Of a stretch of 16,468 nt of DNA, positions 1-15,229 are shown piece by piece (positions within the stretch are counted from its first letter, which is position 1; each line of letters begins with the position of its first letter). A program made the position numbers and the translations under genes. Source of the DNA: a virus (Duplodnaviria; Heunggongvirae; Uroviricota; Caudoviricetes); IMG/VR virus record IMGVR_UViG_2690316184_000007. The stretch is one strand, 5' to 3'. The notes beneath the pieces are model-generated. The model did no database searches. It was given only the letters and a program-made list of their open reading frames with translations, and had not been told where the DNA came from.

Positions 1-288
1 TCAATGGTTGGCGTCATTATCTTTTTCTCTTTCTGAACGTGAATATTGCGGTGGACGGTTCATCAGCTGTGGGGCAAGACGTTTTGCCACCTGAAGAATA
101 ACCACCACCGCAGCGGGAAGCATGAGCAAAACACCGAGAAAAATCATCAGAATCTGCACTTCTGGCCGAGAAAATGGCTCAGGCAGCGACAGGGAGTCGC
201 TTACCGACAGCAGCGCCACCGCCAGTAGCATCATTCCGATAAATTCCAGTATCAACACGCCTTTAGGCAATTTACCGATCGCGCGCAT
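1..288 (-). CDS. ybjC: Small inner-membrane protein YbjC (DUF1418 family), 95 aa
   Basis: Complete 95-aa ORF with two hydrophobic segments (stop TGA at 1-3). Size and position, divergent from grxA, match the E. coli ybjC-grxA-ybjM-ybjL neighbourhood; recognised from memory, not searched. Confidence 0.75.
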   Translation of the reverse strand: MRAIGKLPKGVLILEFIGMMLLAVALLSVSDSLSLPEPFSRPEVQILMIFLGVLLMLPAAVVVILQVAKRLAPQLMNRPPQYSRSEREKDNDANH

Positions 289-3611: not shown

Positions 3612-4712
3612 TCATTCCATTTCGAAATCATCAATCCTCACTTCAAGCTCCAGACTGGTCGTAAAACCGTTATCCGGGCTGACGGTATGCGTCAGAGTCG
3701 TAATGGTCCATTCCGCATCATCTATCGGCTGTTTAAAGCCACTGACTTTCACTGGCATTTCCGTGTAGAGATCTGCCCGCCCTTCCGCCAGTTGTAGCGA
3801 GAATGATGCAACGCCGCGTTGCAGGCGTTCCCACTGCATTTTCGCTGCCCGTTCGGCGTTGCTCCGGTTGGCATAAGTGCGATTAAGTACCAGCACGTTT
3901 TCATCCGTACCCACCAGGTAATCGCCCTGCTTCGCTTCCGGCTCTTTCTTCTGCTTCTTAGTCCTGCGCTTACGCTTCACCGTGGTGCTTTCTTTCTTCG
4001 CGGGTTCGCGGGTATGCAACCAACTGGCAATTACGCCCGTGTAGGCTCCGCGATCTGCCAGGGTAAAGCGGTGACTGTCGCCGTCCTTACGTGTGATTGA
4101 GATCACCGGCAGTGGTTTACCGCTGGCGCTTTTGCCCTGTCCCTGCCGGATGAATAACAGATTGCCATTTTTCACCGACGCGATGGCACCGTACTGGCGC
4201 GCCAGCCGCATCAGAAAACTGCCGTCACTCTCATTAGTCTGGTCTATATGCTCCACGGGCTTATCCGACAGGTCTTTACCCAGTGCCATCTTCAGCTTAT
4301 GACGCGCGGCTATTTCCTTCACCAGTTCCCCGACAGTGGTCTTGTGCCACGATTTTTCACGGCGGGTATTCAGCGTTTCCCTAAAATCAGCACTTCGCGC
4401 CCGGATAGTCAGGCGATCCGGTGCGCCGGTGTGTTCAATCTCGTCCACCGTGAATGCCCCTTTCGGGAAAAGCGGCTGCCCCTTCCAGCCCAGCGCCAGC
4501 GTGATGACCGCACCACGGCGCGGCAGCACGATTTTTCCGTCGGCGTCGTCCAGCTCCAGATCAATCTGGTCTGCTTCAAAGCCCCGATTGTCCGTCAACG
4601 TCAGACTCATCAGGCGGTTATCCAGCACAGTGGTGATATCCTTCCCCTCAATACTGATGCTGAATGCGGGAGTTTTGTTGCCTTTGTTAAGCAGTTCAGA
4701 GCTGAAATTCAC
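3612..4712 (-). CDS. D: P2 gpD-like tail protein (late control gene D), 366 aa
   Basis: 366-aa ORF immediately downstream of U with an ATGA stop/start overlap (4709-4712) and upstream of ogr; translation recognised as the gpD family from memory. Confidence 0.85.
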   Translation of the reverse strand: MNFSSELLNKGNKTPAFSISIEGKDITTVLDNRLMSLTLTDNRGFEADQIDLELDDADGKIVLPRRGAVITLALGWKGQPLFPKGAFTVDEIEHTGAPDRLTIRARSADFRETLNTRREKSWHKTTVGELVKEIAARHKLKMALGKDLSDKPVEHIDQTNESDGSFLMRLARQYGAIASVKNGNLLFIRQGQGKSASGKPLPVISITRKDGDSHRFTLADRGAYTGVIASWLHTREPAKKESTTVKRKRRTKKQKKEPEAKQGDYLVGTDENVLVLNRTYANRSNAERAAKMQWERLQRGVASFSLQLAEGRADLYTEMPVKVSGFKQPIDDAEWTITTLTHTVSPDNGFTTSLELEVRIDDFEME

Positions 4713-5194
4713 GACAGCAGCCCTCCCACCGTTTTACTGATATCGCTTAAGGCAGACGTTGCCGTATCCTGCAAATTATTCAGCTGCGCACTGAGATCAC
4801 CGAACATATCGGACAGGGATTCATCCACCCGTTTGAGCGACAGGGTAAACTCAATCCGGCGCGGCATACCATCGCGGAAAAACTCCGTTTTAGTCTGATT
4901 CAGTCCCTCAATCACATACATGCCGTAAATCGTGCCGCTGCCTTCAATCAGAGGCCATGCTTTCCCCTGTTCTGCCATCTGCTCCAGTGCCAGCAACGAC
5001 AGCCTGCCGCCTGTTATCTCCGGCATAAGAACACCGGAAAGCGTCAGCATGTCGTTGTCCGGTCCCAGAAACTGCGTGGACGGACGACGATTTACCCGGC
5101 TGTTAGCCGCATGTCGCCAGCTGCGCTGATACTGCAGTTCCTGATACGGCACGGTGCGCAGCATAAACACGTACAATCCCAGCACCATCATCAT
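4709..5194 (-). CDS. U: P2 gpU-like tail protein, 161 aa
   Basis: 161-aa ORF between the T remnant and D with ATGA overlaps at both ends; size and position match P2 gpU. Confidence 0.8.
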   Translation of the reverse strand: MMMVLGLYVFMLRTVPYQELQYQRSWRHAANSRVNRRPSTQFLGPDNDMLTLSGVLMPEITGGRLSLLALEQMAEQGKAWPLIEGSGTIYGMYVIEGLNQTKTEFFRDGMPRRIEFTLSLKRVDESLSDMFGDLSAQLNNLQDTATSALSDISKTVGGLLS

Positions 5195-5646
5195 GCGTCG
5201 TATCCCCCCTGATCGCTGTAGTTACTCCTGGCTTTTGCCTTCAGCCTGCGTTCACGTTCATCAAGCTGGCGGGCCACCTCCCGCGCAATATCCTGCGCAC
5301 TTTGTCCTGGCTGCGTCTGAATAATGATCTGCGTCGGTGCCTCAATCCGTTGAGCGGGCGGCACAGTGGCTGCACGACTCACCATTGCTTCACCGCCTTT
5401 CGTGGGAAGTGCCAAAGGATGCAACGGTGGAAGCTCTGCTGGCGCGGCAGCAACACCCATCATTCCGGCAACAACGGCAGCCAGTGCAGCTGTATTTCTC
5501 CGGCTGGTCACATTTGCCGGGCCGTTAACAATTTCCGGCCCGTTTTCACCGACGATGCCAAACTGCCCGCGCGGGATATAGCCGCCGCTGTCATACATCC
5601 CCGCAAAGCCATATCCCCATGCCCGGTTATCTTTCTGCCATCCCAT
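5191..5646 (-). pseudogene. T: 3' remnant of the tail tape-measure gene T (C-terminal ~150 codons only)
   Basis: Reading frame overlaps the U start by ATGA as T does in P2, but an in-frame stop lies at 5656-5658 and the upstream DNA encodes a portal fragment on the opposite strand. Gly/Ala-rich C-terminal sequence is typical of tape-measure ends. Confidence 0.65.
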
Positions 5647-6122
5647 CCGCTTTGCTCAACGAGTCCGCCACGCTGTTCCGCCGCAAGTATTACATCAACG
5701 GCAGCCATGCAGGCTTCATCATGTATATGACCGATGCCGCGCAGAATCAGGAGGATGTGAACAATCTCCGCAATGCGATGAAAAGCGCCAAAGGCCCTGG
5801 CAACTTCCGCAACCTGTTTATGTACTCGCCTAACGGCAAAAAGGACGGGATTCAGATCATCCCGTTGTCAGAAGTCGCGGCGAAGGATGAGTTTCTGAAT
5901 ATCAAAAATGTCAGCCGCGATGACATGATGGCAGCGCATCGTGTGCCGCCGCAAATGATGGGGATTATGCCGAATAATGTTGGGGGGTTTGGGGATGTGG
6001 AGAAGGCAAGTAATGTATTTGTTCGTAACGAACTTATCCCCTTACAAAAACGTATCGAACAATTAAATCAATGGATAGGAAACACAATTATTAATTTTTT
6101 ACCATATTCTCTCCAAAGTTAA
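5619..6122 (+). pseudogene. Q: 3' fragment of the portal gene Q (C-terminal ~150 codons)
   Basis: Translation ...RVPPQMMGIMPNNVGGFGDVEKASNVFVRNELIPLQKRIEQLN... is recognised as the C-terminal region of P2-type portal proteins. The ORF is about half the full portal length and has no plausible upstream continuation. Confidence 0.65.
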
Positions 6123-6162: not shown

Positions 6163-6780
6163 TTACCAGTTAAAAATTGATGAGCTGCGAATTGCAGGAA
6201 CATCCGATGGATTTCGTTTAGCAGCTGGTTCCATCAACTTACGCTTATTAAATGCCTGATCAATATAATACTCAGGATTTTTAATAAAGACAGAGTATTT
6301 TACCAATGCACAATATACGTCAGAGTCATTATAATGGGGAACTGTTTTTTCATAAACATGATTCTTTCTAACCAGATAAGGCAAATAATAATCATATCCC
6401 AAACCTGGCGTTCTTAGACTTATAGAACATCCGCATGATGGATCTGCACATACTGCAGGAGTAAACACACTGTCGTAAATTTCATCTCTGATAACACCAA
6501 TTAGACCATTATAGTTTTCTCCCCAGAGTGATGCTTGAATTTCAGTGTTTACAAATGGACGATTTTTGGTTTCCGTTCCAATAAGAACGACAGTAACCGT
6601 TGAGTCTTTTAAAAAATCCTCACGAATAGTCCTCATTATTGTTTCATCAGTGTTAGTTGTACTAATGTCACCATCACTTACCGACTTATCAATAAACGAT
6701 TCTCCTCCGAATAAATCAATAATCTCATCTTTGAGATCTTGTTCGTTAGCATGATGATAACTAAGAAACGTCTTATGCAT
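6163..6780 (-). CDS. TIR-like domain protein, ThsB-like (DUF1863 / PF08937-type), 205 aa
   Basis: N-terminus MHKTFLSYHH... and the core STVTVVLIGTETKNRPFVNTEIQAS resemble the B. cereus ThsB pattern as I recall it (VFFSFHY ... VTCVLIGSQTFNRRWVRYEI), including a Glu at the expected catalytic position (E80). Start ATG overlaps the upstream gene's stop (TAATG). Strongly AT-rich relative to flanking prophage DNA. Confidence 0.7.
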   Translation of the reverse strand: MHKTFLSYHHANEQDLKDEIIDLFGGESFIDKSVSDGDISTTNTDETIMRTIREDFLKDSTVTVVLIGTETKNRPFVNTEIQASLWGENYNGLIGVIRDEIYDSVFTPAVCADPSCGCSISLRTPGLGYDYYLPYLVRKNHVYEKTVPHYNDSDVYCALVKYSVFIKNPEYYIDQAFNKRKLMEPAAKRNPSDVPAIRSSSIFNW

Positions 6781-7511
6781 TATTCACTCCATTTATCAAC
6801 ATTTATATCAAACTCTTTGACTACCTTATCATTGAAGAAATCGTTTACTTCTTTAAAACCTTCCAATACTTGACTAAAATGATAATAATGCTTTTGTATA
6901 ATACTTATAGGGGTTAAATGATACGGCAATGATATAAATTCGCCGTTAGGGTCTCTATCCTTTGTGGTCACTTTATCATGATCTGAAACATATTTATGCC
7001 ATCTCCGATAATTATTTTGATGTTTTGTTAAAAAAGAGTTTAAGGTTTTCAAAATTTCATTTGAAAGTAAATACAGTTTTTTATCTCTTTTTTTCTTCAC
7101 ATCTAGTAATTTCATTTCATCTCTAATGAATTTATAGCACTCATAATATGAGTTTAAAACTTCTTCAATTGAGTCATAATTCGGATCAAATTTAAATAAT
7201 GTTCGCTTCGTATCCAGATAATTTTTTACGCTCTTTTTAAAAAGAAGATCAGACTTATTTAGTAAAATATTAATACCACCAAAACTAAGTTGCTCCAATC
7301 TCAATGAATATCTTTGATGAAATGCACCGACCAGCAAGATATAAGCAACTAAAAATAGTATTAATACTGATAAAAAAGCACGAATTATGCTTACATTTGA
7401 CATGAAATTAACTATAAACCACCATTTTTCAAACGGTGAAAACGGAATGCTCCCCATGATAATAAGTAGAAGAACAAAGATACAACTCCATAAAACCCAC
7501 AATCTGTACAT
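6780..7511 (-). CDS. Membrane protein with two N-terminal transmembrane helices and a ~150-aa Lys/Tyr/Asn-rich C-terminal domain of unknown function; first gene of the TIR operon
   Basis: ORF-track frame extends to a TTG at 7556; I prefer the ATG at 7509-7511 (MYRLWVLWSCIFVLLLIIMGSI...), preceded by AAAAAGGA. Hydrophobic helices at about residues 4-22 and 50-75 of the ATG-start protein. The C-terminal domain has no Gly-rich Macro motif and no SIR2-like motif I can see. Confidence 0.6.
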   Translation of the reverse strand: MYRLWVLWSCIFVLLLIIMGSIPFSPFEKWWFIVNFMSNVSIIRAFLSVLILFLVAYILLVGAFHQRYSLRLEQLSFGGINILLNKSDLLFKKSVKNYLDTKRTLFKFDPNYDSIEEVLNSYYECYKFIRDEMKLLDVKKKRDKKLYLLSNEILKTLNSFLTKHQNNYRRWHKYVSDHDKVTTKDRDPNGEFISLPYHLTPISIIQKHYYHFSQVLEGFKEVNDFFNDKVVKEFDINVDKWSE

Positions 7512-7663
7512 AAGAAAGATCCTTTTTCTTTTTATAATACTGCAACTACACCTCAAGTCAAAACCCTCTTCTGATATTACCCTCTACTACAGTAACCCAT
7601 CACATGACCTCCGACTTATCAGAAGACTAGCCAAACTTTCTCAATCAAATCAGGTTGCGCGCG

Positions 7664-8130: not shown

Positions 8131-8319
8131 TCAATTGATGACATCCATTGAGCGGTTGTATTCGTGGGTTCTGATTTTTGCCATGAGTTCATCTGTCAGT
8201 TCAGAAACCCACTGCAGGGCCAGCCCCTTCTCTTCATCACTACACTCACTAGCCGCTACAAGCTTAAGAAAAAAATCAATGCGCTGGAGCTTCAAAGACT
8301 CCAAAAAATAGTCCTGCAT
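8131..8319 (-). CDS. Small acidic hypothetical protein (62 aa), first gene of the LexA-controlled operon; possible Tum-like antirepressor module
   Basis: Internal ATG at 8317-8319 preceded by a strong TAGGAGGAAAG Shine-Dalgarno; stop 10 nt upstream of the DinI-like start. No motif recognised. Confidence 0.5.
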   Translation of the reverse strand: MQDYFLESLKLQRIDFFLKLVAASECSDEEKGLALQWVSELTDELMAKIRTHEYNRSMDVIN

Positions 8320-8360
8320 CTTTCCTCCTATGACACCACAAGAAATACTGTACGTATAAC

Positions 8361-8380
8361 CACTGTTTATATTTACAGCA
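8361..8380 (-). promoter_or_regulatory. LexA operator (SOS box) upstream of the small-ORF/DinI-like operon
   Basis: Perfect CTGT-N8-ACAG (CTGTttatatttACAG at 8363-8378) in the AT-rich region ~45 bp upstream of the 8319 start, matching the LexA consensus TACTGTATATATATACAGTA in both half-sites. -35/-10 hexamers could not be placed confidently. Confidence 0.65.
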
Positions 8381-8472: not shown

Positions 8473-10845
8473 TTAATACAGGTTCCGCCATTTATCATCT
8501 TCCTTCAGACGCTGGTTCCGATAGAAGATACGCAGGCCTGCTCCTGATGGAATACTGCCACCGCGAAGGAGCAAATCGACTTCTTTCTCGCTGCCATCAA
8601 ATCCTCTGGACTTCAGTTCATAGACGAGCTGCTGATGCTGATGATCTGTAATTCGCTGTTTGTAGTCTTTACACCTTTTCGGTTTAACCAGGCGCAACCT
8701 TACTGCCAGCTCCCGGCGATCTTTTTTGCTCATACTGTGCAGGTAATCGTGCAACTCCTTGTCATCCATGCGGGTAATGTCCGTTCTGGTGTCCCCATCA
8801 GCTGATTTATCTTTCTCCTGTTGGTTCAAATTTTCAGCAAGGGGACAGTTATTGCCACGAGTCCAAGGGGCGCAAGCGCCCTGGTCGGCTGCCGCCTCCT
8901 GAACATCAACGGCCTTACGAACCATTTTCCACTTCACGGCATGAGTGCAGATCTTGCCCTCTGCAATAGGTGACCAGATGCCATAAATACGAATGCCGTG
9001 ATCGCCATAGGCGGTCGGCTCTTCGTTGATTTCATAAGCGGTTCTGATGAGGTGATATTTGCGGGGAACCAGTACGCCGCCCTGCTTCATGATGTAGGTG
9101 GCAAAACAACCAGCATCAGCAGCAGCCAGGATGGCATCAAGGCGCGGGTTATCCAGTACCCGCGCACCTGCTTTTTTGTCCCCCTGTTGCCTTGCCGCCT
9201 GACCAGCCAGCAATCGCAGTTCACGGTAAGCCTGACGCCCCGGAATGCCAAAGAAGCGGAATTGCTGAACACGATGCAGAGACGCCCAGGCATTAACGTA
9301 TTCAGCATTATCACGCAGGGATTTCCCCGTTTCCTTGCTGATCTCGCCAGCCAGACCACGCCCGTCAATGTTCTTACTGATGTATTTCGCGATGTAGCTT
9401 GTTGGCGTACCTTTGCGCGGGTTAATCAACTCAGACTTAAAGCGCGGCCCAGTGTTATTGCCCAGTTCCTCGCGGTCTTCACGGATGGCAAACTTACGCA
9501 GTAATGCAGTGATGGCGCGGCGGTCTTTTTTGCGCATAAAACACAACAGGTGCCAGTGAACTGTACCGTCATGATGCGGCTCAGCCACCCGCACGCCATA
9601 CCACCGCAATCCGGCTTTGTGCATCGCCTTACGAAATGCAGCAAACATGCCGACCAGATAATCACTGCTTTGTCTTACCGTCGCATTTGTCCAAGTTGGG
9701 TTGGGCCTGCCATTATTTAGCGTGGAATGGAAACGTGACGGACAGGTGATGGTGTAGAAAACGGCGCAGTCACCGCGCATTTCCGCGATAAGCTCCAGGC
9801 CTTTAACACAGGCCATCATCTCATTGCGGCGATGCGCAGGGTTGCTGCTGCTGGCGTTTACCACATCCTCCATGTCCAGCGTGTCGCCGTCTTCGTTCAC
9901 CAGTTCATGAGAACGAAAAAACTCCAGCGACTTACGGCGCTGCTCACGTTTATGCATCACGGCTTCATAGCTGACATAGGGAGATGCTTTTTTGCTGACC
10001 AGGCAGACAGCACGCAACTGCTCTTCCCGCCATTCGCAACGCATCTTCCATAATTTCCGGTACCACCAGTCAGCGCACAACATACGCGCCAGCGAACCCG
10101 GAATGAGTTCATAGGGCACGGGTTTACGGCGGTTTCTTTTCCGGCGGAGTTGCTCAAACGCAGGCGGGATGACATCCAGATGCAGGGTTTCCGCTGCCAC
10201 CTTTTCCCATGTCTTGCGGATTTCTTCTGGCTTAACGTCATCGGTGACATACAAATCGCCACAAGCTGCATCAAGGCACATGCTCATATGCGCAGCTACC
10301 AGGGTGGACAGGCGTTTCACCTGATCCTGACTCATTTCAGGCAGGATCAGCAGGCCGTCCAGCCCTTCATGGCTTGCCATAAAGCGAAAAGAAGTGGATA
10401 GCTGACAGTCGCGTACATGCTCCAGCCGTTCCAGACATGGCTTAATCGTCTCACGCAAATAGCGGGAATAAGCCTTTGGCCTGCCCAGGCTGCTGAAGTA
10501 TTCAATACGTTGCATCAGCGGCTTGCTGATATGGGAAGGCTGGGCATTGACGTCCGCCAGAATGACCATATCTGGATTAAAACGCTGCTGCTCATGCGCC
10601 AGCTTTGCCCGACTAATGAGCTTATCCTGCTCCATTTCGCGCTGGACAGGATCACGGGATTCATTAAAGAAATAACGCTCCCAGACCTGATCACTCAGTG
10701 CCTCGCGGCGCAGCTGTTCCTGCTCGTTATCGGCAGCGTACAGAGCGATCAGGTTTGAAAGCGCAGAAACTGAAGATTGCTCTTCTGTCTCTACGTAAGG
10801 ATTGATTGCTTTTTTCTCAGCATTCCAGGAATAGCTGTAGTTCAT
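8473..10845 (-). CDS. A: P2 gpA-type rolling-circle replication initiator (HUH endonuclease), ~790 aa
   Basis: Contains the HUH motif ([11 protein letters not shown]) and the two-tyrosine active-site motif ([13 protein letters not shown]). Start preferred at the ATG 10843-10845 (MNYSYSWN...), which overlaps the upstream stop as TAATG; the ORF track extends to 10896. Confidence 0.85.
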
Positions 10846-11675
10846 TACGCAATCTCCAGTTCGAGCTGTGAAGGCTGCAAACCATTCGACAGCCAATCAG
10901 AAACTGAAGGTGGGCGAACAGCTTCAATTGCACCTTTTAAAATTGCGCAACGGTTTTTCAGAATGACAGCTTTCAGCTCCTTTTCCGTCAGATTGCGCGA
11001 ATACTCAGCCTCCTGAATAGCCCGCGTCAGCTCAGGATATTTGCTATTAAATTTGGGGACATTGCAGGCAAGATTTGTACTGTCGGCAGTCGCCAGTGGG
11101 TAATTTCCCAACACACGACCGTCAAGCATGCGCAAACCATGAACAGCTGTTTTGAAATTGTGTCGGCAATAAATTGCTTCAAAAGCGTCCTGCATACGAC
11201 GATGCCAGTGCGCAGTTCTGATAGCCGCATATTCACCAGACGATCCAAAGCAGACACGAGGCCATTCACGACATAGCTCGATAAGCCGATCGATTGACTC
11301 GTGCAGATGCCAGACGGGAGTTGCCTTCCCGTAGAACATTTTCGGAACTTCGTTTATCAGGGCATCATTGTCACGTTCACCTCCGTCCACAACATCAGGA
11401 ATGACAAAAAAAGCGACCTTAGGATGGTGGTAATAGTTCAGGAGCCATTTATAAAAATCACTCCAGTTAATTTTTAGCCCACGCACCCATGCAGAAAATG
11501 CGCCGTTATCAATGCCGACGACCTGAGCGTGCTGAATGGACGCCGCAATCTGATCTGGTCGTACATAGGAGACGAAAGCGCCAGCTCCGCTCACCGCAAT
11601 ACGATGAACGTCGCCAGCACTTCCCCAGACAGGCGTCCCATGGAAATGATGAATTCCGTGGTGCATTTCTTTCAC
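10845..11675 (-). CDS. Conserved prophage early-operon protein of unknown function, 273-276 aa, His-rich N-terminus
   Basis: Long ORF between dam and A, coupled to both (GTG overlapping the dam stop, or ATG at 11664-11666; TAATG with A). No motif I can assign with confidence. Confidence 0.55.
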
Positions 11676-12526
11676 ACTTGCACCCCGAAAATAACAGTAG
11701 AGTCACGTCCCCTACTAAAATCGGCACTAAACCAATTAGCAGATTTAGTGGCAATCATCTCTGTTGCAAATTTTCCCTCCCCCGCTGCAACGCCGATGCT
11801 GCGTTTCGCCCTGATGTAGTGGTGAGTGAAATTACGATAAAGGGACCGGGTCAAAGACGTGTTACTGTTAGAAACAATGACCGGATGTCCTTCTGATGAC
11901 CGATGTTCAAGAATGGATGCCAGGTGATACTGATCATCTTCAGTGAAACCATCAGTGTGATAGCCGGAAAACGTACCGTCATAAGGCGGATCGCAATACA
12001 CCACATCCCCCACCTTCAACATCGCCAGCGTTTCATCAAAGCTGGCGCAGATAAACGTTGCCCGCTGGGCTTTCTCTGCAAATGCGCGAATTTCTTTTTC
12101 AGGGAAATACGGATTTTTATAATTACCGTAGGGAATGTTGAAATGCCCGCTCTTGTTATAGCGACATAAACCACGGTAACCGTGACGATTGAGATACAGG
12201 AAATATACCGCTTTCATGAAATCAGTAATTTCAGTGGAGTAATTAAACTCCTGCCTTATGTTGTAATAAGCCACCTCCCTGTTTGCTTCCTCAAATAAAA
12301 CTCTGGCACGAGATATAAACGCCTCACAATCAGCAGCAACCTTTTTATAGAGGTTGATTAAATCAGGATTAATATCCGCAACAAGATAGCTGGGATAATC
12401 CGTCTCCATCATCACTGCACAGGAACCCGCGAAAGGTTCAACCAGTCGCGGGCCAGCAGGAAGATGCTTTTTCAGTTCGGACATTATGGCGGTTTTATTT
12501 CCTGCCCATTTCAGGATGGTGCTCAT
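11672..12526 (-). CDS. dam: DNA adenine methyltransferase (Dam-like, D12-class N6-adenine MTase), ~284 aa
   Basis: AdoMet-binding motif ([10 protein letters not shown]) followed by the catalytic DPPY motif ([12 protein letters not shown]), in the order typical of Dam-group enzymes. Start at the internal ATG 12524-12526 ([11 protein letters not shown]...), overlapping the upstream stop as ATGA. Confidence 0.85.
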
Positions 12527-12750
12527 ACAGCACCTCCGTTGTAATGTTTGCCTTTCAGCTCTGCGATTTCCTGACAGGTAATGCAAAGCTGCACACCCGG
12601 AATGGCACGGCGGCGTGCTGGCGGAATTGGCGCTTCACACTCAACGCAAAGCACGCGGGACACGCCCGGCGTTTTGGCACGGGCAGCACGGATATGGCGT
12701 TGGCGTTCTTCTTCAACGCGCTGCTGTACGAGATCCATTGCATCAGCCAT
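12523..12750 (-). CDS. TraR/DksA-family C4 zinc-finger protein, 75 aa
   Basis: C-terminal CVECEAPIPPARRRAIPGVQLCITCQ: two CxxC pairs spaced as in TraR/DksA-type phage zinc fingers. ATG overlaps the upstream stop (TGATG). Confidence 0.7.
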   Translation of the reverse strand: MADAMDLVQQRVEEERQRHIRAARAKTPGVSRVLCVECEAPIPPARRRAIPGVQLCITCQEIAELKGKHYNGGAV

Positions 12751-12983
12751 CAGTGGATCTCCTGCGCTTCGTTCTGGATTGCTTCAGCAGTCACACGCAG
12801 CAGTTCTGCCGCTTCGACGTGGTTTAGCTGGCGGGAGGTGATATGACACGCCAGGCTATCGAGGCGAGCAGCCATTGCTTCAGCCCTTGCCCGGCGTTCT
12901 TCCAGACGAGCCTCTGTCAGTAAAAGATTAAGACCTGCATCATCCGGTCCGGTTTTGGTCGTGAGGGTTTCAATATTACGCAT
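12750..12983 (-). CDS. Hypothetical early-operon protein, 77 aa
   Basis: ATG at 12981-12983 preceded by AGGAG; stop overlaps the TraR-like start. Predicted helical and acidic; no motif recognised. Confidence 0.45.
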   Translation of the reverse strand: MRNIETLTTKTGPDDAGLNLLLTEARLEERRARAEAMAARLDSLACHITSRQLNHVEAAELLRVTAEAIQNEAQEIH

Positions 12984-13050
12984 AAGCAATTCTCCTGAAT
13001 TTAGATAAAGGGATGCCCGGCGGGTTTACGCCATTAATTTCATTAGTTGG

Positions 13051-13392
13051 TTAATTCGGCATGGTTAGCCGTCTGGGAAATAAGCTCACCACTGCACGAA
13101 AATGATTCATTGCTTTAATCAACTCCCGCTTTTCGTCAGTGGTCAGCTCATTAATGCTGATGCTATGACGTTCAGCTGGAATTTTTGCCATAAAGAATAT
13201 GGCAGCCAGTGCCCGTTTATTTTGTTCATTATTGATATCCCGAGGATCACGCATATCTTTAATAAACCGCTCAAGCTCTGACTCAATATTCAAACCAAAA
13301 ACTTTCGCCCTTAACTCCGCAATATGATTAAGTCCATTCAGGCGTTCACCGGGTCTTAATGGAACAGTCGCCGCAGCGCCTTCAATAGCCAT
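13051..13392 (-). CDS. Hypothetical early-operon protein, 113 aa
   Basis: ATG at 13390-13392 preceded by GGGGGA; in-operon position. No motif recognised. Confidence 0.5.
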   Translation of the reverse strand: MAIEGAAATVPLRPGERLNGLNHIAELRAKVFGLNIESELERFIKDMRDPRDINNEQNKRALAAIFFMAKIPAERHSISINELTTDEKRELIKAMNHFRAVVSLFPRRLTMPN

Positions 13393-13556
13393 TTGTTCCC
13401 CCGTTTTTTCGTAGATAGTTCTGCCAGCAATTCATCTTGTGAACGGCACGGATGCCAGCGTTTACCATCCTCACCCATGATCCAGCCGTGACCGTAGTGC
13501 ATTGCCGGACTTTGTTTTACCAGCAGCGATGCAAATGATGGTTCTTTCGTCAGCAT
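13356..13556 (-). CDS. Hypothetical small protein, 66 aa, in the position 186 uses for fil/dhr
   Basis: ATG at 13554-13556 preceded by GAGGTG, 8 nt after the cII-like stop; its 3' end overlaps the next gene by 37 nt. Functional assignment is by position only. Confidence 0.4.
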   Translation of the reverse strand: MLTKEPSFASLLVKQSPAMHYGHGWIMGEDGKRWHPCRSQDELLAELSTKKRGNKWLLKALRRLFH

Positions 13557-13563
13557 AAGCACC

Positions 13564-14079
13564 TCACAGCAAACCGAATGAAGCACCGAGGCCAGTCACG
13601 GTATCAACTGCACTCGCCATCGCAGGATTAGCCTGTAAACGGGCCTGCAATGAAACAGCAGCCAGCGCCATCAGTCGTGTAACAGAGTTAATGCTGCTGA
13701 TCGCATCACGACGGCCTGCACTGGTTTTTACATCGCCAGAAACCGCACCTGCCGCGACACGCCCTATCTCTGCAGTTGCACTCATGACGTAATGCGGCAG
13801 TTTCTCTTTTGCCACCTCATTAATCGGTACACATGGCAGGCAGTGAATCTGTGCCAGAAAGCCATCTACCAGCGTTGAATCTTCAGTCAGATCGGTAAGC
13901 AACCAGATTTCTGGTGCGGTTAATAAATGAGGTTGAGCTGGGTTCAGCTTGTTCCGCAGAATCTGCACATTCATGCCTGCACGTTCTGCCAGTTGCACTA
14001 GGTTGTGGCGCAATGCGAATGCACGACAGGCTTCATCAAAATGTGGATGTTTGGAAACTTGGTAATCAAACATGGTCAA
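13564..14079 (-). CDS. cII: 186-type CII-like regulatory protein, 171 aa
   Basis: [26 protein letters not shown]... resembles the N-terminus of phage 186 CII as I recall it; size and position (second gene of the rightward early operon) fit. Confidence 0.65.
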
Positions 14080-14105: not shown

Positions 14106-14327
14106 CTAATTAAGGTTTAGATTGCATTCTGAAAGCGCATCAACGGTCATGGCTGCTATGTTGATCATCACTTTTTCACGTTTTTTATCTTTGCGCAGAC
14201 GGTGACGGATAAGGCGTCCGTCAGCCAACATGTCATTGATGGTATCGATGGACAGCCCTGTCAGCTCGCTATAGCGTTCAATAGTCACATGAGGCGTGGT
14301 AAGAGTGATTGAAATGTTAGGTCTCAT
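14106..14327 (-). CDS. apl: Apl/Cox-type small DNA-binding protein (excisionase/transcriptional repressor), 73 aa
   Basis: First gene of the early operon, divergent from cI; helix-turn-helix-like segment [21 protein letters not shown]; basic C-terminal region. Confidence 0.6.
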
Positions 14328-14446
14328 GATGCAACATTCCTCGTTTAATGATGATTAATCAGGACGAATACGGATCGTTTGTATTTTGTGAACACCATAA
14401 ACATACGATCGCACAGTGAAATCGTCAAGATAAAAGTTCACTTGGA
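14328..14446. promoter_or_regulatory. Lysis-lysogeny switch region (divergent promoters/operators between apl and cI)
   Basis: 119-bp gap between divergent starts. Contains inverted hexamers GTGAAC (14388-14393) and GTTCAC (14436-14441), and two GATC sites (14373-14376, 14407-14410) inside direct repeats ATACGGATCG / ATACGATCG. Confidence 0.5.
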
Positions 14447-15022
14447 GTGACCATGAATTTGGAGAAAGGCGGACGAGGCGCTATAGAGCGCATGGTAGAA
14501 GCTTATGGATTCAAAACTCGACAGGCGTTGTGCGATCATTTAGGAATCTCTAAAAGTACACTCGCCACACGCTACATGCGTGACTCATTCCCAGCAGAAT
14601 GGGTAATCCAGTGCGCCCTTGAAACGGGCACCTCGCTTAATTGGCTCACAACCGGACATGGTTCAAAGCAAACTTCAGGTAATACAAATACTATGGAAGT
14701 TGCTAAATATGTATTATCTGATGGTGCCTTGCGTGAAGACGGTTTTTATATTTTTGATAAGGGATTTCTACCCTCTACGTTTAAAAAACCTTTTGTCATC
14801 ACAGATAACAATTCTGAATTTATTTGTGATAAAGAATTTGATGATATACGTGACGGTAAATGGGTAATAAGTATTGATGGCGAAATAACAATCCGCGACA
14901 TTACTCGTTTACCCGGTGGAAGAATCTTCGTTGAAGGTGGAAACAGAGCCTTCGAGTGCAAGATAGAAGATGTTGAAATAATTGGGAAAATTATAAGTTT
15001 AACAATTAAGTACGTTAGGTAA
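14447..15022 (+). CDS. cI: CI-type immunity repressor (186-like), 191 aa
   Basis: N-terminal DNA-binding region (...FKTRQALCDHLGISKSTLATRYMRD...), length close to 186 CI, divergent from apl/cII and followed by int. Confidence 0.8.
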   Translation: MTMNLEKGGRGAIERMVEAYGFKTRQALCDHLGISKSTLATRYMRDSFPAEWVIQCALETGTSLNWLTTGHGSKQTSGNTNTMEVAKYVLSDGALREDGFYIFDKGFLPSTFKKPFVITDNNSEFICDKEFDDIRDGKWVISIDGEITIRDITRLPGGRIFVEGGNRAFECKIEDVEIIGKIISLTIKYVR

Positions 15023-15037
15023 TACCGGGAGGAAACT

Positions 15038-15229
15038 ATGCTTGGTAAGGTATTTTTTGTGGTTTTATCATGCTCTTTGTTATTAAACCCACTAACTACC
15101 TATGCTAAAAATTATCCTTGTTCTGGGAAAAAGGGAGGTGTCTCTCACTGTACCTCCGATGGAAAGTTCGTTTGCAATGATGGAACTATTAGTAAATCAA
15201 AAAAAATCTGTACTAAAAACTCGCGATAA
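15038..15229 (+). CDS. Small secreted Cys-rich, Lys-rich peptide (63-aa precursor, predicted signal peptide)
   Basis: Strong Shine-Dalgarno (GGGAGGAAACT-ATG); N-terminal [23 protein letters not shown] has signal-peptide character; mature ~40-aa part carries 4 Cys. AT-rich; not part of the canonical P2/186 backbone between the repressor and int. Confidence 0.5.

Follow-up and report, generated by a model that had tools for sequence, protein, structure and literature searches.

The window analysed here is a 16,468-nucleotide (nt) stretch of DNA, IMG/VR virus record IMGVR_UViG_2690316184_000007. One of its open reading frames, of 284 amino acids (aa) and termed dam, encodes a DNA adenine methyltransferase of the Dam family. 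It belongs to the operon of early lytic genes in a 186-like prophage (Peduoviridae), and its stop codon is overlapped by the start of a second open reading frame, of 276 aa, with similarities to DpdA proteins. These two open reading frames and the genes on either side of them are as follows (positions are those of the window).

11672–12526, minus strand: dam, 284-aa Dam-family (D12 class, alpha-group) N6-adenine DNA methyltransferase; ATG start, with GGAGG 8 nt upstream
10845–11675, minus strand: dpdA-like open reading frame, 276 aa (or 273 aa, counted from the ATG at 11666); overlaps the dam stop codon at its start and the gene A start at its own stop codon
12523–12750, minus strand: TraR/DksA-type C4 zinc-finger gene (PF01258, E-value = 4e-11; phrog_54); its stop codon overlaps the dam ATG (ATGA)
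8473–10845, minus strand: gene A, rolling-circle replication endonuclease (nickase) (PF05840, E-value = 7e-128; RefSeq “replication endonuclease”); ATG at 10845

Codon overlaps join all four genes: ATGA between traR and dam, GTGTGA between dam and dpdA, and TAATG between dpdA and A. The traR-dam-dpdA-A segment is a single translationally coupled run.

The Dam open reading frame

The translated dam sequence matches the Pfam model PF02086 (MethyltransfD12) over the entire profile (positions 1–253 of 253, E-value = 4e-76, 256.5 bits with a cut-off of 22) and the TIGR00571 “dam” model (E-value = 7e-95, 317.7 bits, cut-off 114.85). The Escherichia coli Dam structures 2G1P and 4GOL align with residues 4–260 of the phage protein (E-value = 6e-73), and the E. 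coli and phage proteins display a 47% aa sequence identity. An earlier reading of the window (the first-pass annotation) had called this open reading frame a Dam-type adenine methyltransferase, and the full-length model matches and the end-to-end alignment with the E. coli Dam structures bear this out. The RefSeq record with 100% identity is WP_000104150.1, annotated as “DNA adenine methylase”.

Two sequence motifs had also been named. DPPY, the catalytic motif IV, is present at residues 179–182 and aligns with D181–Y184 of E. coli Dam (EcoDam). The FxGxG motif was misread: motif I is FAGSC (FxGxC), in which the phenylalanine and the first glycine are retained and the last glycine is replaced by cysteine in every member of the phage clade.

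The equivalents of EcoDam K9, Y119, L122, R124, P134, Y138 and R249 are all identical in phage Dam. The residues that read GATC in EcoDam are K9, Y119, N120, L122, R124, P134 and Y138 (PMC4417163); six of these seven are identical in the phage protein, and N120 is replaced by arginine throughout the clade. The best prediction from this residue conservation is that phage Dam is most likely GATC-specific.

With NF008152, the equivalog model of housekeeping Dam, the phage protein scores 288.1 bits, which is under the cut-off of 441. Thus it is a phage paralogue and not an orthologue of the host dam. It belongs to the same fold family as E. coli housekeeping Dam (2G1P, 4GOL) and has the DPPY motif and the DNA-reading residues in common with it, but it is phage-borne, is placed under the CI repressor and the pR promoter (see below) instead of being constitutive, and carries N120R and the glycine to cysteine change in motif I.

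Closer relatives are found in other phages. The Dam proteins of Salmonella phage RE2010 and Klebsiella phages KP12 and 4LV2017 are 88%–91% identical to the window Dam, and that of Salmonella phage SEN8 is 75% identical; the last ~25 residues are the most divergent. All four have the FAGSC and DPPY motifs and N120R in common with the window Dam, and all four have, as here, an early-operon position after a DksA-like zinc-finger gene. They differ in that gene A directly follows dam, whereas the DpdA-like gene intervenes in the window. Phage P1 Dmt (37% identical to the window Dam) and T4 Dam are distant in sequence. They too are orphan Dam-family methylases that are expressed in lytic growth, with roles in packaging and protection. 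We know of no pac-site or packaging link in 186-like phages. The role of phage Dam in control of the replication cycle has been reviewed (PMC12707154).

Of 5426 complete E. coli genomes, 1242 (roughly a quarter) have DNA similar to the dam region. The window dam is thus an ordinary representative of an already annotated gene class; P2-family prophages commonly carry orphan Dam genes, and these are annotated correctly.

The DpdA-like open reading frame

The 276-aa open reading frame is annotated in RefSeq as a hypothetical protein, and searches of Pfam, NCBIfam and PADLOC gave no match. It matches phrog_887, “queuine tRNA-ribosyltransferase” (E-value = 2.4e-96). Its aa sequence has a 54.7% identity to DpdA of Pantoea phage MED16 (E-value = 3e-90), and 35% to gp032 of Salmonella phage 7-11 (E-value = 2e-59); for SEN1, a P2-like phage of Salmonella, gp38 shows 75% identity. 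The SEN1 gene occupies the same slot before gene A as the window dpdA, with a DUF5405 gene upstream where dam sits here.

Two of these relatives have been characterized. MED16 and 7-11 carry DpdA only, without genes for synthesis of preQ0 (7-cyano-7-deazaguanine), and liquid chromatography–tandem mass spectrometry detected dADG (2′-deoxy-7-amido-7-deazaguanosine) at 0.13% of G in MED16 DNA and at 0.02% in 7-11 DNA (PMC8306585, PMC6884629). In the same papers MED16 DpdA was matched by HHpred to tRNA-guanine transglycosylase (TGT) with 99.18%, and its closest viral relatives were found to be SEN1 and SW9. MED16, 7-11, SEN1 and SW9 (gp39) all lack preQ0 synthesis genes and are host-dependent. MED16 and 7-11 are virulent or unrelated phages, unlike the 186-like prophage of the window. 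The E. coli host carries the queuosine pathway genes queA and tgt, and E. coli also has queCDE.

The AlphaFold2 model of the 276-aa open reading frame (mean predicted local distance difference test score 85.6) is a (beta/alpha)8 TIM barrel with eight strand-helix units. Foldseek searches of the PDB gave the TGT-like Cap10 as the top match (E-value = 1e-4), with archaeal TGT (arcTGT) further down (probability 0.98), and a BFVD structure search yielded 29 matches, of which all the named ones are phage queuine tRNA-ribosyltransferases. The fold matches have moderate TM-scores, 0.5–0.7. An alignment of 76 diverse family members shows that D56 (>90%), D94, H123, H179 and D198 are invariant or nearly so. 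These residues are predicted to lie at the C-terminal strand ends of the barrel, the general location of the active-site aspartates of TGT and DpdA (Asp95, Asp130 and Asp256 in DpdA), to which they may correspond. In addition, in one family member, P0212 (335 aa), a DpdA-like domain is naturally fused to a QueD/PTPS domain (PF01242), and this links the family to preQ0 biosynthesis.

Several results weigh against a relationship to TGT and DpdA. The zinc motif CxCx2Cx22H is absent, and no conserved Cys/His cluster is seen in the 76-member alignment. None of the 76 members matches any Pfam model, including that of TGT (PF01702); hhalign comparisons of shallow and deep family profiles with E. coli TGT gave a probability of 1% or less; and phmmer and hidden Markov model (HMM) searches of PDB sequences gave no match for the family. 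The HHpred value published for MED16 DpdA was thus not reproduced by the hhalign and HMM comparisons made here. Because this sequence link to TGT failed, the DpdA assignment rests on homology to published DpdA proteins, on the fold and on the QueD fusion. The 276-aa sequence is also without the large Ins8 insertion of bacterial DpdA (bDpdA), and the lack of both Ins8 and a zinc site places it with a minimal singleton type and not with bDpdA. It is filed here as a putative minimal, singleton DpdA-type 7-deazaguanine DNA transglycosylase.

The family has >4300 members in the protein database, all of them unnamed. Of the 5426 complete E. coli genomes, about 105 (about 2%) carry the window dpdA allele itself. 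As to the sequences modified, the targets are GA or GGC for known DpdA1 enzymes and CxGCxG for bacterial DpdA; an overlap of the DpdA target motif with GATC is only a possibility.

Linkage and fusion of dam and dpdA

The contents of the slot that separates the zinc-finger gene from gene A differ between phages. In Klebsiella phages it holds dam alone, in SEN1 DUF5405 and dpdA, and in phage 186 an exonuclease-like gene, DUF5405 and a PAPS (phosphoadenosine phosphosulfate)-reductase-like gene, with neither dam nor dpdA. The PAPS-reductase-like gene, orf84 (positions 4744–5748 of the phage 186 locus, L096), is just before A, the position of dpdA in the window; hence the slot may generally host nucleic-acid-modifying enzymes.

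The arrangement was compared in the 80 viral contigs that are closest in DpdA, a sample that is biased toward close relatives. The order dam-dpdA is present in 50 contigs, DUF5405-dpdA in 21, dpdA alone in eight, and one has another context. The dam-dpdA order is kept across Dam alleles that are 67%–100% identical and DpdA alleles that are 74%–100% identical, and it is also found in an Atlantibacter genome (L009). Among the ~105 E. coli genomes with the window dpdA allele, 102 have an adjoining dam.

In Rosenbergiella metrosideri (L011, positions 3977–5710) the two sequences form a single open reading frame of 577 aa, with the DpdA-like sequence in the N-terminal region and Dam, with FAGGG and DPPY motifs, in the C-terminal region. 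This fusion is not in a 186-like early operon. A scan of genome contigs gave 10 loci, too few for statistics. Two other joined sequences were set aside. P0011 (421 aa, Dam and DpdA), considered as a second fusion, is most likely a deletion product, since Dam residues 1–193 are joined to DpdA from about residue 46. P0124 is a deletion fusion of DpdA and gpD.

Thus dam and dpdA display a stable linkage and one natural fusion; that the two enzymes cooperate is suggested as a hypothesis only. The 7-deazaguanine literature that was searched has no mention of a link to Dam or of dam-dpdA coupling.

Operon structure and predicted expression

The remaining genes of the operon and its control elements are the following. 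The matches of the cox/apl-like, cII, fil, DUF5347 and DUF2732 genes are from Pfam and PHROG.

14447–15022, plus strand: CI immunity repressor, 186 type (PF07022, E-value = 3e-33; PF16452, E-value = 2e-28)
14400–14428, minus strand: putative early lytic promoter pR; -35 TTGACG, 17-nt spacer, -10 TATGTT; the sole promoter-like site on the operon strand, in the CI/cox switch
14106–14327, minus strand: cox/apl-like gene
13564–14079, minus strand: cII
13356–13586, minus strand: fil
13051–13392, minus strand: DUF5347 gene
12750–12989, minus strand: DUF2732 gene
8131–8378 (8131–8319 in RefSeq), minus strand: small phrog_698 open reading frame (E-value = 2.5e-37), candidate SOS-controlled Tum-like antirepressor

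The order on the minus strand is cox/apl, cII, fil, DUF5347, DUF2732, the TraR/DksA zinc-finger gene, dam, the 276-aa open reading frame and gene A. The small open reading frame preceded by a LexA box and a DinI-like gene are downstream of gene A, and the integrase gene is on the plus strand, as is CI. The early operon of phage 186 (orf84 to A) has the same gene order and variable slot, and its pR, CI operators and Apl sites are marked in the phage 186 record. The first-pass annotation had placed dam in a prophage early operon, which agrees with its location among the early lytic genes of a 186-type prophage.

The predicted pR corresponds in position to the pR annotated in phage 186. In phage 186, pR drives the early operon, and gene A needs translation through the preceding gene. 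No internal promoter that would uncouple dam from pR was found on the operon strand, and terminator-like matches are not in excess over shuffled sequence. As there is no other promoter on the operon strand, Dam would be made only once CI repression of pR is lifted. By analogy with phage 186 it should be silent in the lysogen and be made only after derepression of pR.

A perfect LexA box, CTGTTTATATTTACAG (0 mismatches), is present at positions 8363–8378, before the phrog_698 open reading frame and beside the DinI-like gene. The homologous region of SEN1 is annotated as “UV induction of bacteriophage”. The phrog_698 open reading frame with its LexA box mirrors the Tum arrangement of phage 186, and as a candidate antirepressor it would derepress pR. 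The prophage, although it is a remnant (see below), may still respond to SOS.

Absence of a cognate restriction enzyme

Scans with Pfam, PADLOC and PHROGs show no restriction endonuclease or nuclease domain in any open reading frame of the window except the gpA nickase, and the top PADLOC model for Dam is “orphan methyltransferase” (oMTase PDLC03729, E-value = 7e-110). The neighbours of dam are the TraR-like zinc-finger gene and the DpdA-like gene, and this is not the composition of a type II restriction-modification locus. Two candidates for a cognate nuclease were rejected: gpA, which is a replication nickase, and a ThsB-like TIR gene with its 258-aa partner (described below), which lie on the far side of gene A, at a distance of 4 kb, and belong to the cargo of another slot. 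The first-pass annotation had described dam as an orphan with no restriction enzyme nearby. The lack of a nearby, cognate enzyme stands; the gene is less solitary than that description implies, as a second DNA-modification gene, the DpdA-like one, which had been overlooked, overlaps its stop codon.

The lack of a cognate nuclease and the PADLOC assignment are in keeping with a purely anti-restriction function, in which Dam would pre-methylate progeny DNA against MboI/DpnII-type enzymes of the next host and DpdA would be unrelated cargo. Early-operon placement implies expression only on exit, which is typical of phage protective methylases (EcoSal review, PMC12707154). DpdA and Dam are also each found alone in the same slot. 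However, phages of this group have Dam-positive hosts (Escherichia, Klebsiella, Salmonella, Enterobacter). Such hosts cannot carry enzymes that cut unmethylated GATC, and DNA that leaves them is already largely GATC-methylated. In addition, the DpdA-Dam fusion and the co-inheritance of the two genes over diverged alleles argue against complete independence. We regard anti-restriction as the only function as rather unlikely. Anti-restriction and gene regulation had both been suggested at first pass; the former, taken alone, is weakened by the Dam-positive hosts. Of the two switch GATC sites that had been pointed to, one gives a better form of that argument through its place in the early promoter.

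GATC sites in the switch region

The CI/cox intergenic region (119 nt) contains two GATC sites, at 14373 and 14407. Both had been pointed out in the first-pass annotation, but their number is at chance (1.7 expected). GATC counts are 69 in the window (64–80 expected), 52 in the prophage (65 expected) and 2 in dam (5.5 expected). Since there is no enrichment anywhere, the argument from numbers was dropped. The contexts of the two sites are similar (CGATCGTATG and CGATCCGTAT) and the sites are 34 bp apart; the second is retained in close relatives only.

The position of one site is of more interest. GATC 14407–14410 encompasses positions -17 to -14 of the predicted pR, in the spacer and one base upstream of the -10 element, and is within the 186-type CI binding region. 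The layout TTGAC-N13-GATC-N-TAnnnT is present in 16 of 19 aligned diverged switch regions, in which CI is 37%–55% identical and the spacers are unrelated. A survey was made of 218 loci (L014–L256) from three samples, obtained via DpdA, via the window cII and via the phage 186 cII, with the pattern TT[GT]AC-N12-14-GATC-N0-2-TAnnnT. The pattern was found in 106 of 120 Dam-encoding loci (88%) and in 19 of 98 dam-less loci (19%). When only distinct upstream sequences are counted, the figures are 65 of 75 and 17 of 91 (odds ratio 28); both comparisons are uncorrected for shared ancestry. Twelve promoter families that are otherwise unrelated show the pattern; three of them are found only in dam-less phages. 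A stricter pattern with TTGAC as the -35 element, which gave 0 of 70 dam-less loci, overstated the association and was replaced by TT[GT]AC.

These data bear on the proposal that the main target of phage Dam is its own lysis-lysogeny switch. Methylation of the pR GATC would tune pR or CI binding, and Dam, made from pR, would in turn act on the switch or label genomes that have been replicated. The association with dam and the retention of the layout in unrelated promoter families favor this proposal. Phage 186, which has no dam, also has no GATC in its pR spacer, and a review reports that excision of the P2-family prophage SopEPhi is favored by Dam methylation through a mechanism that has not been explained (PMC7380047). 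Against this, the samples were picked through DpdA or cII and ancestry is uncorrected, three GATC-promoter families occur only in dam-less phages, 14 Dam-encoding loci are without the site, the host Dam of a lysogen would already methylate the pR GATC, and pR is predicted, not mapped, in the window phage. We therefore treat the association as a lead and not as a result, and consider self-regulation as the main role of Dam to be unlikely.

A prophage remnant with an intact cassette

A 2-kb region of the window is 100% identical to sequences of avian pathogenic E. coli (APEC) O78, of ACN002 and of many poultry and human E. coli isolates. An E. coli host, which the first-pass annotation had only supposed, is thereby confirmed. 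The prophage is inserted between ybjL and rcdA and is a ~13-kb remnant without structural genes. The place of the deletion can be located:

5191–6122, both strands: deletion scar; a truncated tape-measure gene (5191–5646, minus strand) abuts a truncated portal gene (5619–6122, plus strand)

The whole virion module between the tape-measure and portal genes has been deleted. Both truncated genes are pseudogenes in RefSeq, and a portal fragment is recognized by Pfam. Only 18 complete E. coli genomes, all of one lineage (APEC O78 type), have the tape-measure/portal junction. The remnant state of the prophage had escaped the first-pass annotation.

This raises the question of whether the methylase is simply a non-functional leftover of a decaying prophage copy without virion genes. 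The truncated pseudogenes and the restriction of the junction to 18 genomes of one lineage are points in favor of this reading. Against it, the dam and dpdA open reading frames are intact with all catalytic motifs kept, and the window dpdA is 100% identical to copies on viral contigs of 34–38 kb, which look full-length and have the size of whole P2-family genomes. Identical cassettes on such contigs suggest that the module is still alive elsewhere and that the copy in the window is a relic of it. Furthermore, as CI, pR, the LexA box and gene A are intact, SOS-induced expression remains possible. A non-functional methylase is quite improbable, although the prophage copy of the window may be inert. 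This prophage cannot form virions, so that for the window copy the question of a benefit to phage DNA does not arise.

Proposed role of the Dam-DpdA cassette

We consider it probable that the three parts of the Dam assignment, i.e. its identity, its GATC specificity and its timing of expression, hold jointly; the benefit to the phage is held with less confidence. The identity of the gene, the conserved residues, the structure of the operon, the assignment of the neighbour from homology and fold and the recurrence of the pair are shown by the analysis, whereas the GATC specificity, the time of expression, the base that DpdA inserts and the benefit to the phage are inferred. The following sequence of events would accommodate the data. 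The dam gene occupies the variable, “non-essential” slot that precedes gene A and follows the TraR/DksA zinc-finger gene. Derepression of pR, probably via SOS and the LexA-controlled Tum-like antirepressor, would lead to transcription of traR-dam-dpdA-A. Dam would then act on the replicating phage DNA and keep it fully GATC-methylated when host Dam is limiting. The singleton DpdA would draw on bases of the host preQ0 pathway and replace a small fraction of guanines by a 7-deazaguanine, as MED16 and 7-11 do with dADG. Two marks would thus be present on the progeny DNA that exits the cell. The window copy is a still-intact relic cassette in a virion-less remnant.

In its fullest form this proposal makes Dam one half of a two-mark unit, with N6-methyladenine at GATC and a 7-deazaguanine inserted by a minimal DpdA without a zinc site, the two enzymes being joined in one polypeptide in some cases, together with an epigenetic loop on the switch through the pR GATC. 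We put this forward tentatively and give it only a small chance of being correct as a whole.

There are further points on the opposing side. The cysteine in motif I and N120R mean that Dam activity, or its exact specificity, could differ from that predicted. Dam alone is far more common than Dam with DpdA (1242 vs. ~105 E. coli genomes), DpdA occurs without Dam in SEN1, in L004 and in 29 of the 80 viral loci, and the adjacency of dam and dpdA may only reflect a shared cargo slot. The value of a second GATC methylase in Dam-positive hosts is argued only, and because the modified G in relatives amounts to just 0.02%–0.13%, a protective value of the DpdA mark is doubtful.

What is new here is modest: an unannotated DpdA partner, the Dam-DpdA linkage with one fusion, and the promoter GATC. 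The presence of dpdA in temperate P2-family phages and in many prophages of Enterobacteriaceae suggests that 7-deazaguanine insertion, with intermediates of the host preQ0 pathway, may not be confined to virulent phages. The linkage leads to the hypothesis of a cooperation between adenine methylation and guanine replacement. The pR GATC, if functional, would provide a simple model of methylation-sensitive lysis-lysogeny control and could also account for the Dam dependence reported for the excision of SopEPhi.

Other open reading frames in the window

A ThsB-like gene with a TIR domain (205 aa; PF08937, PADLOC ThsB) and an overlapping 258-aa open reading frame that follows it are at positions 6163–7556 on the minus strand. 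The 258-aa sequence has no family match, and no ThsA-like partner of the ThsB-like gene was seen. The pair is situated between the portal remnant and the DinI-like gene, an apparent cargo or defence slot.

A 63-aa open reading frame at positions 15038–15229 (plus strand), between CI and the integrase gene, belongs to phrog_6000, a family of unknown function, and is annotated as hypothetical. It has a hydrophobic N-terminus and several cysteines, and it may represent a small secreted protein or a lipoprotein moron on the lysogenic transcript.

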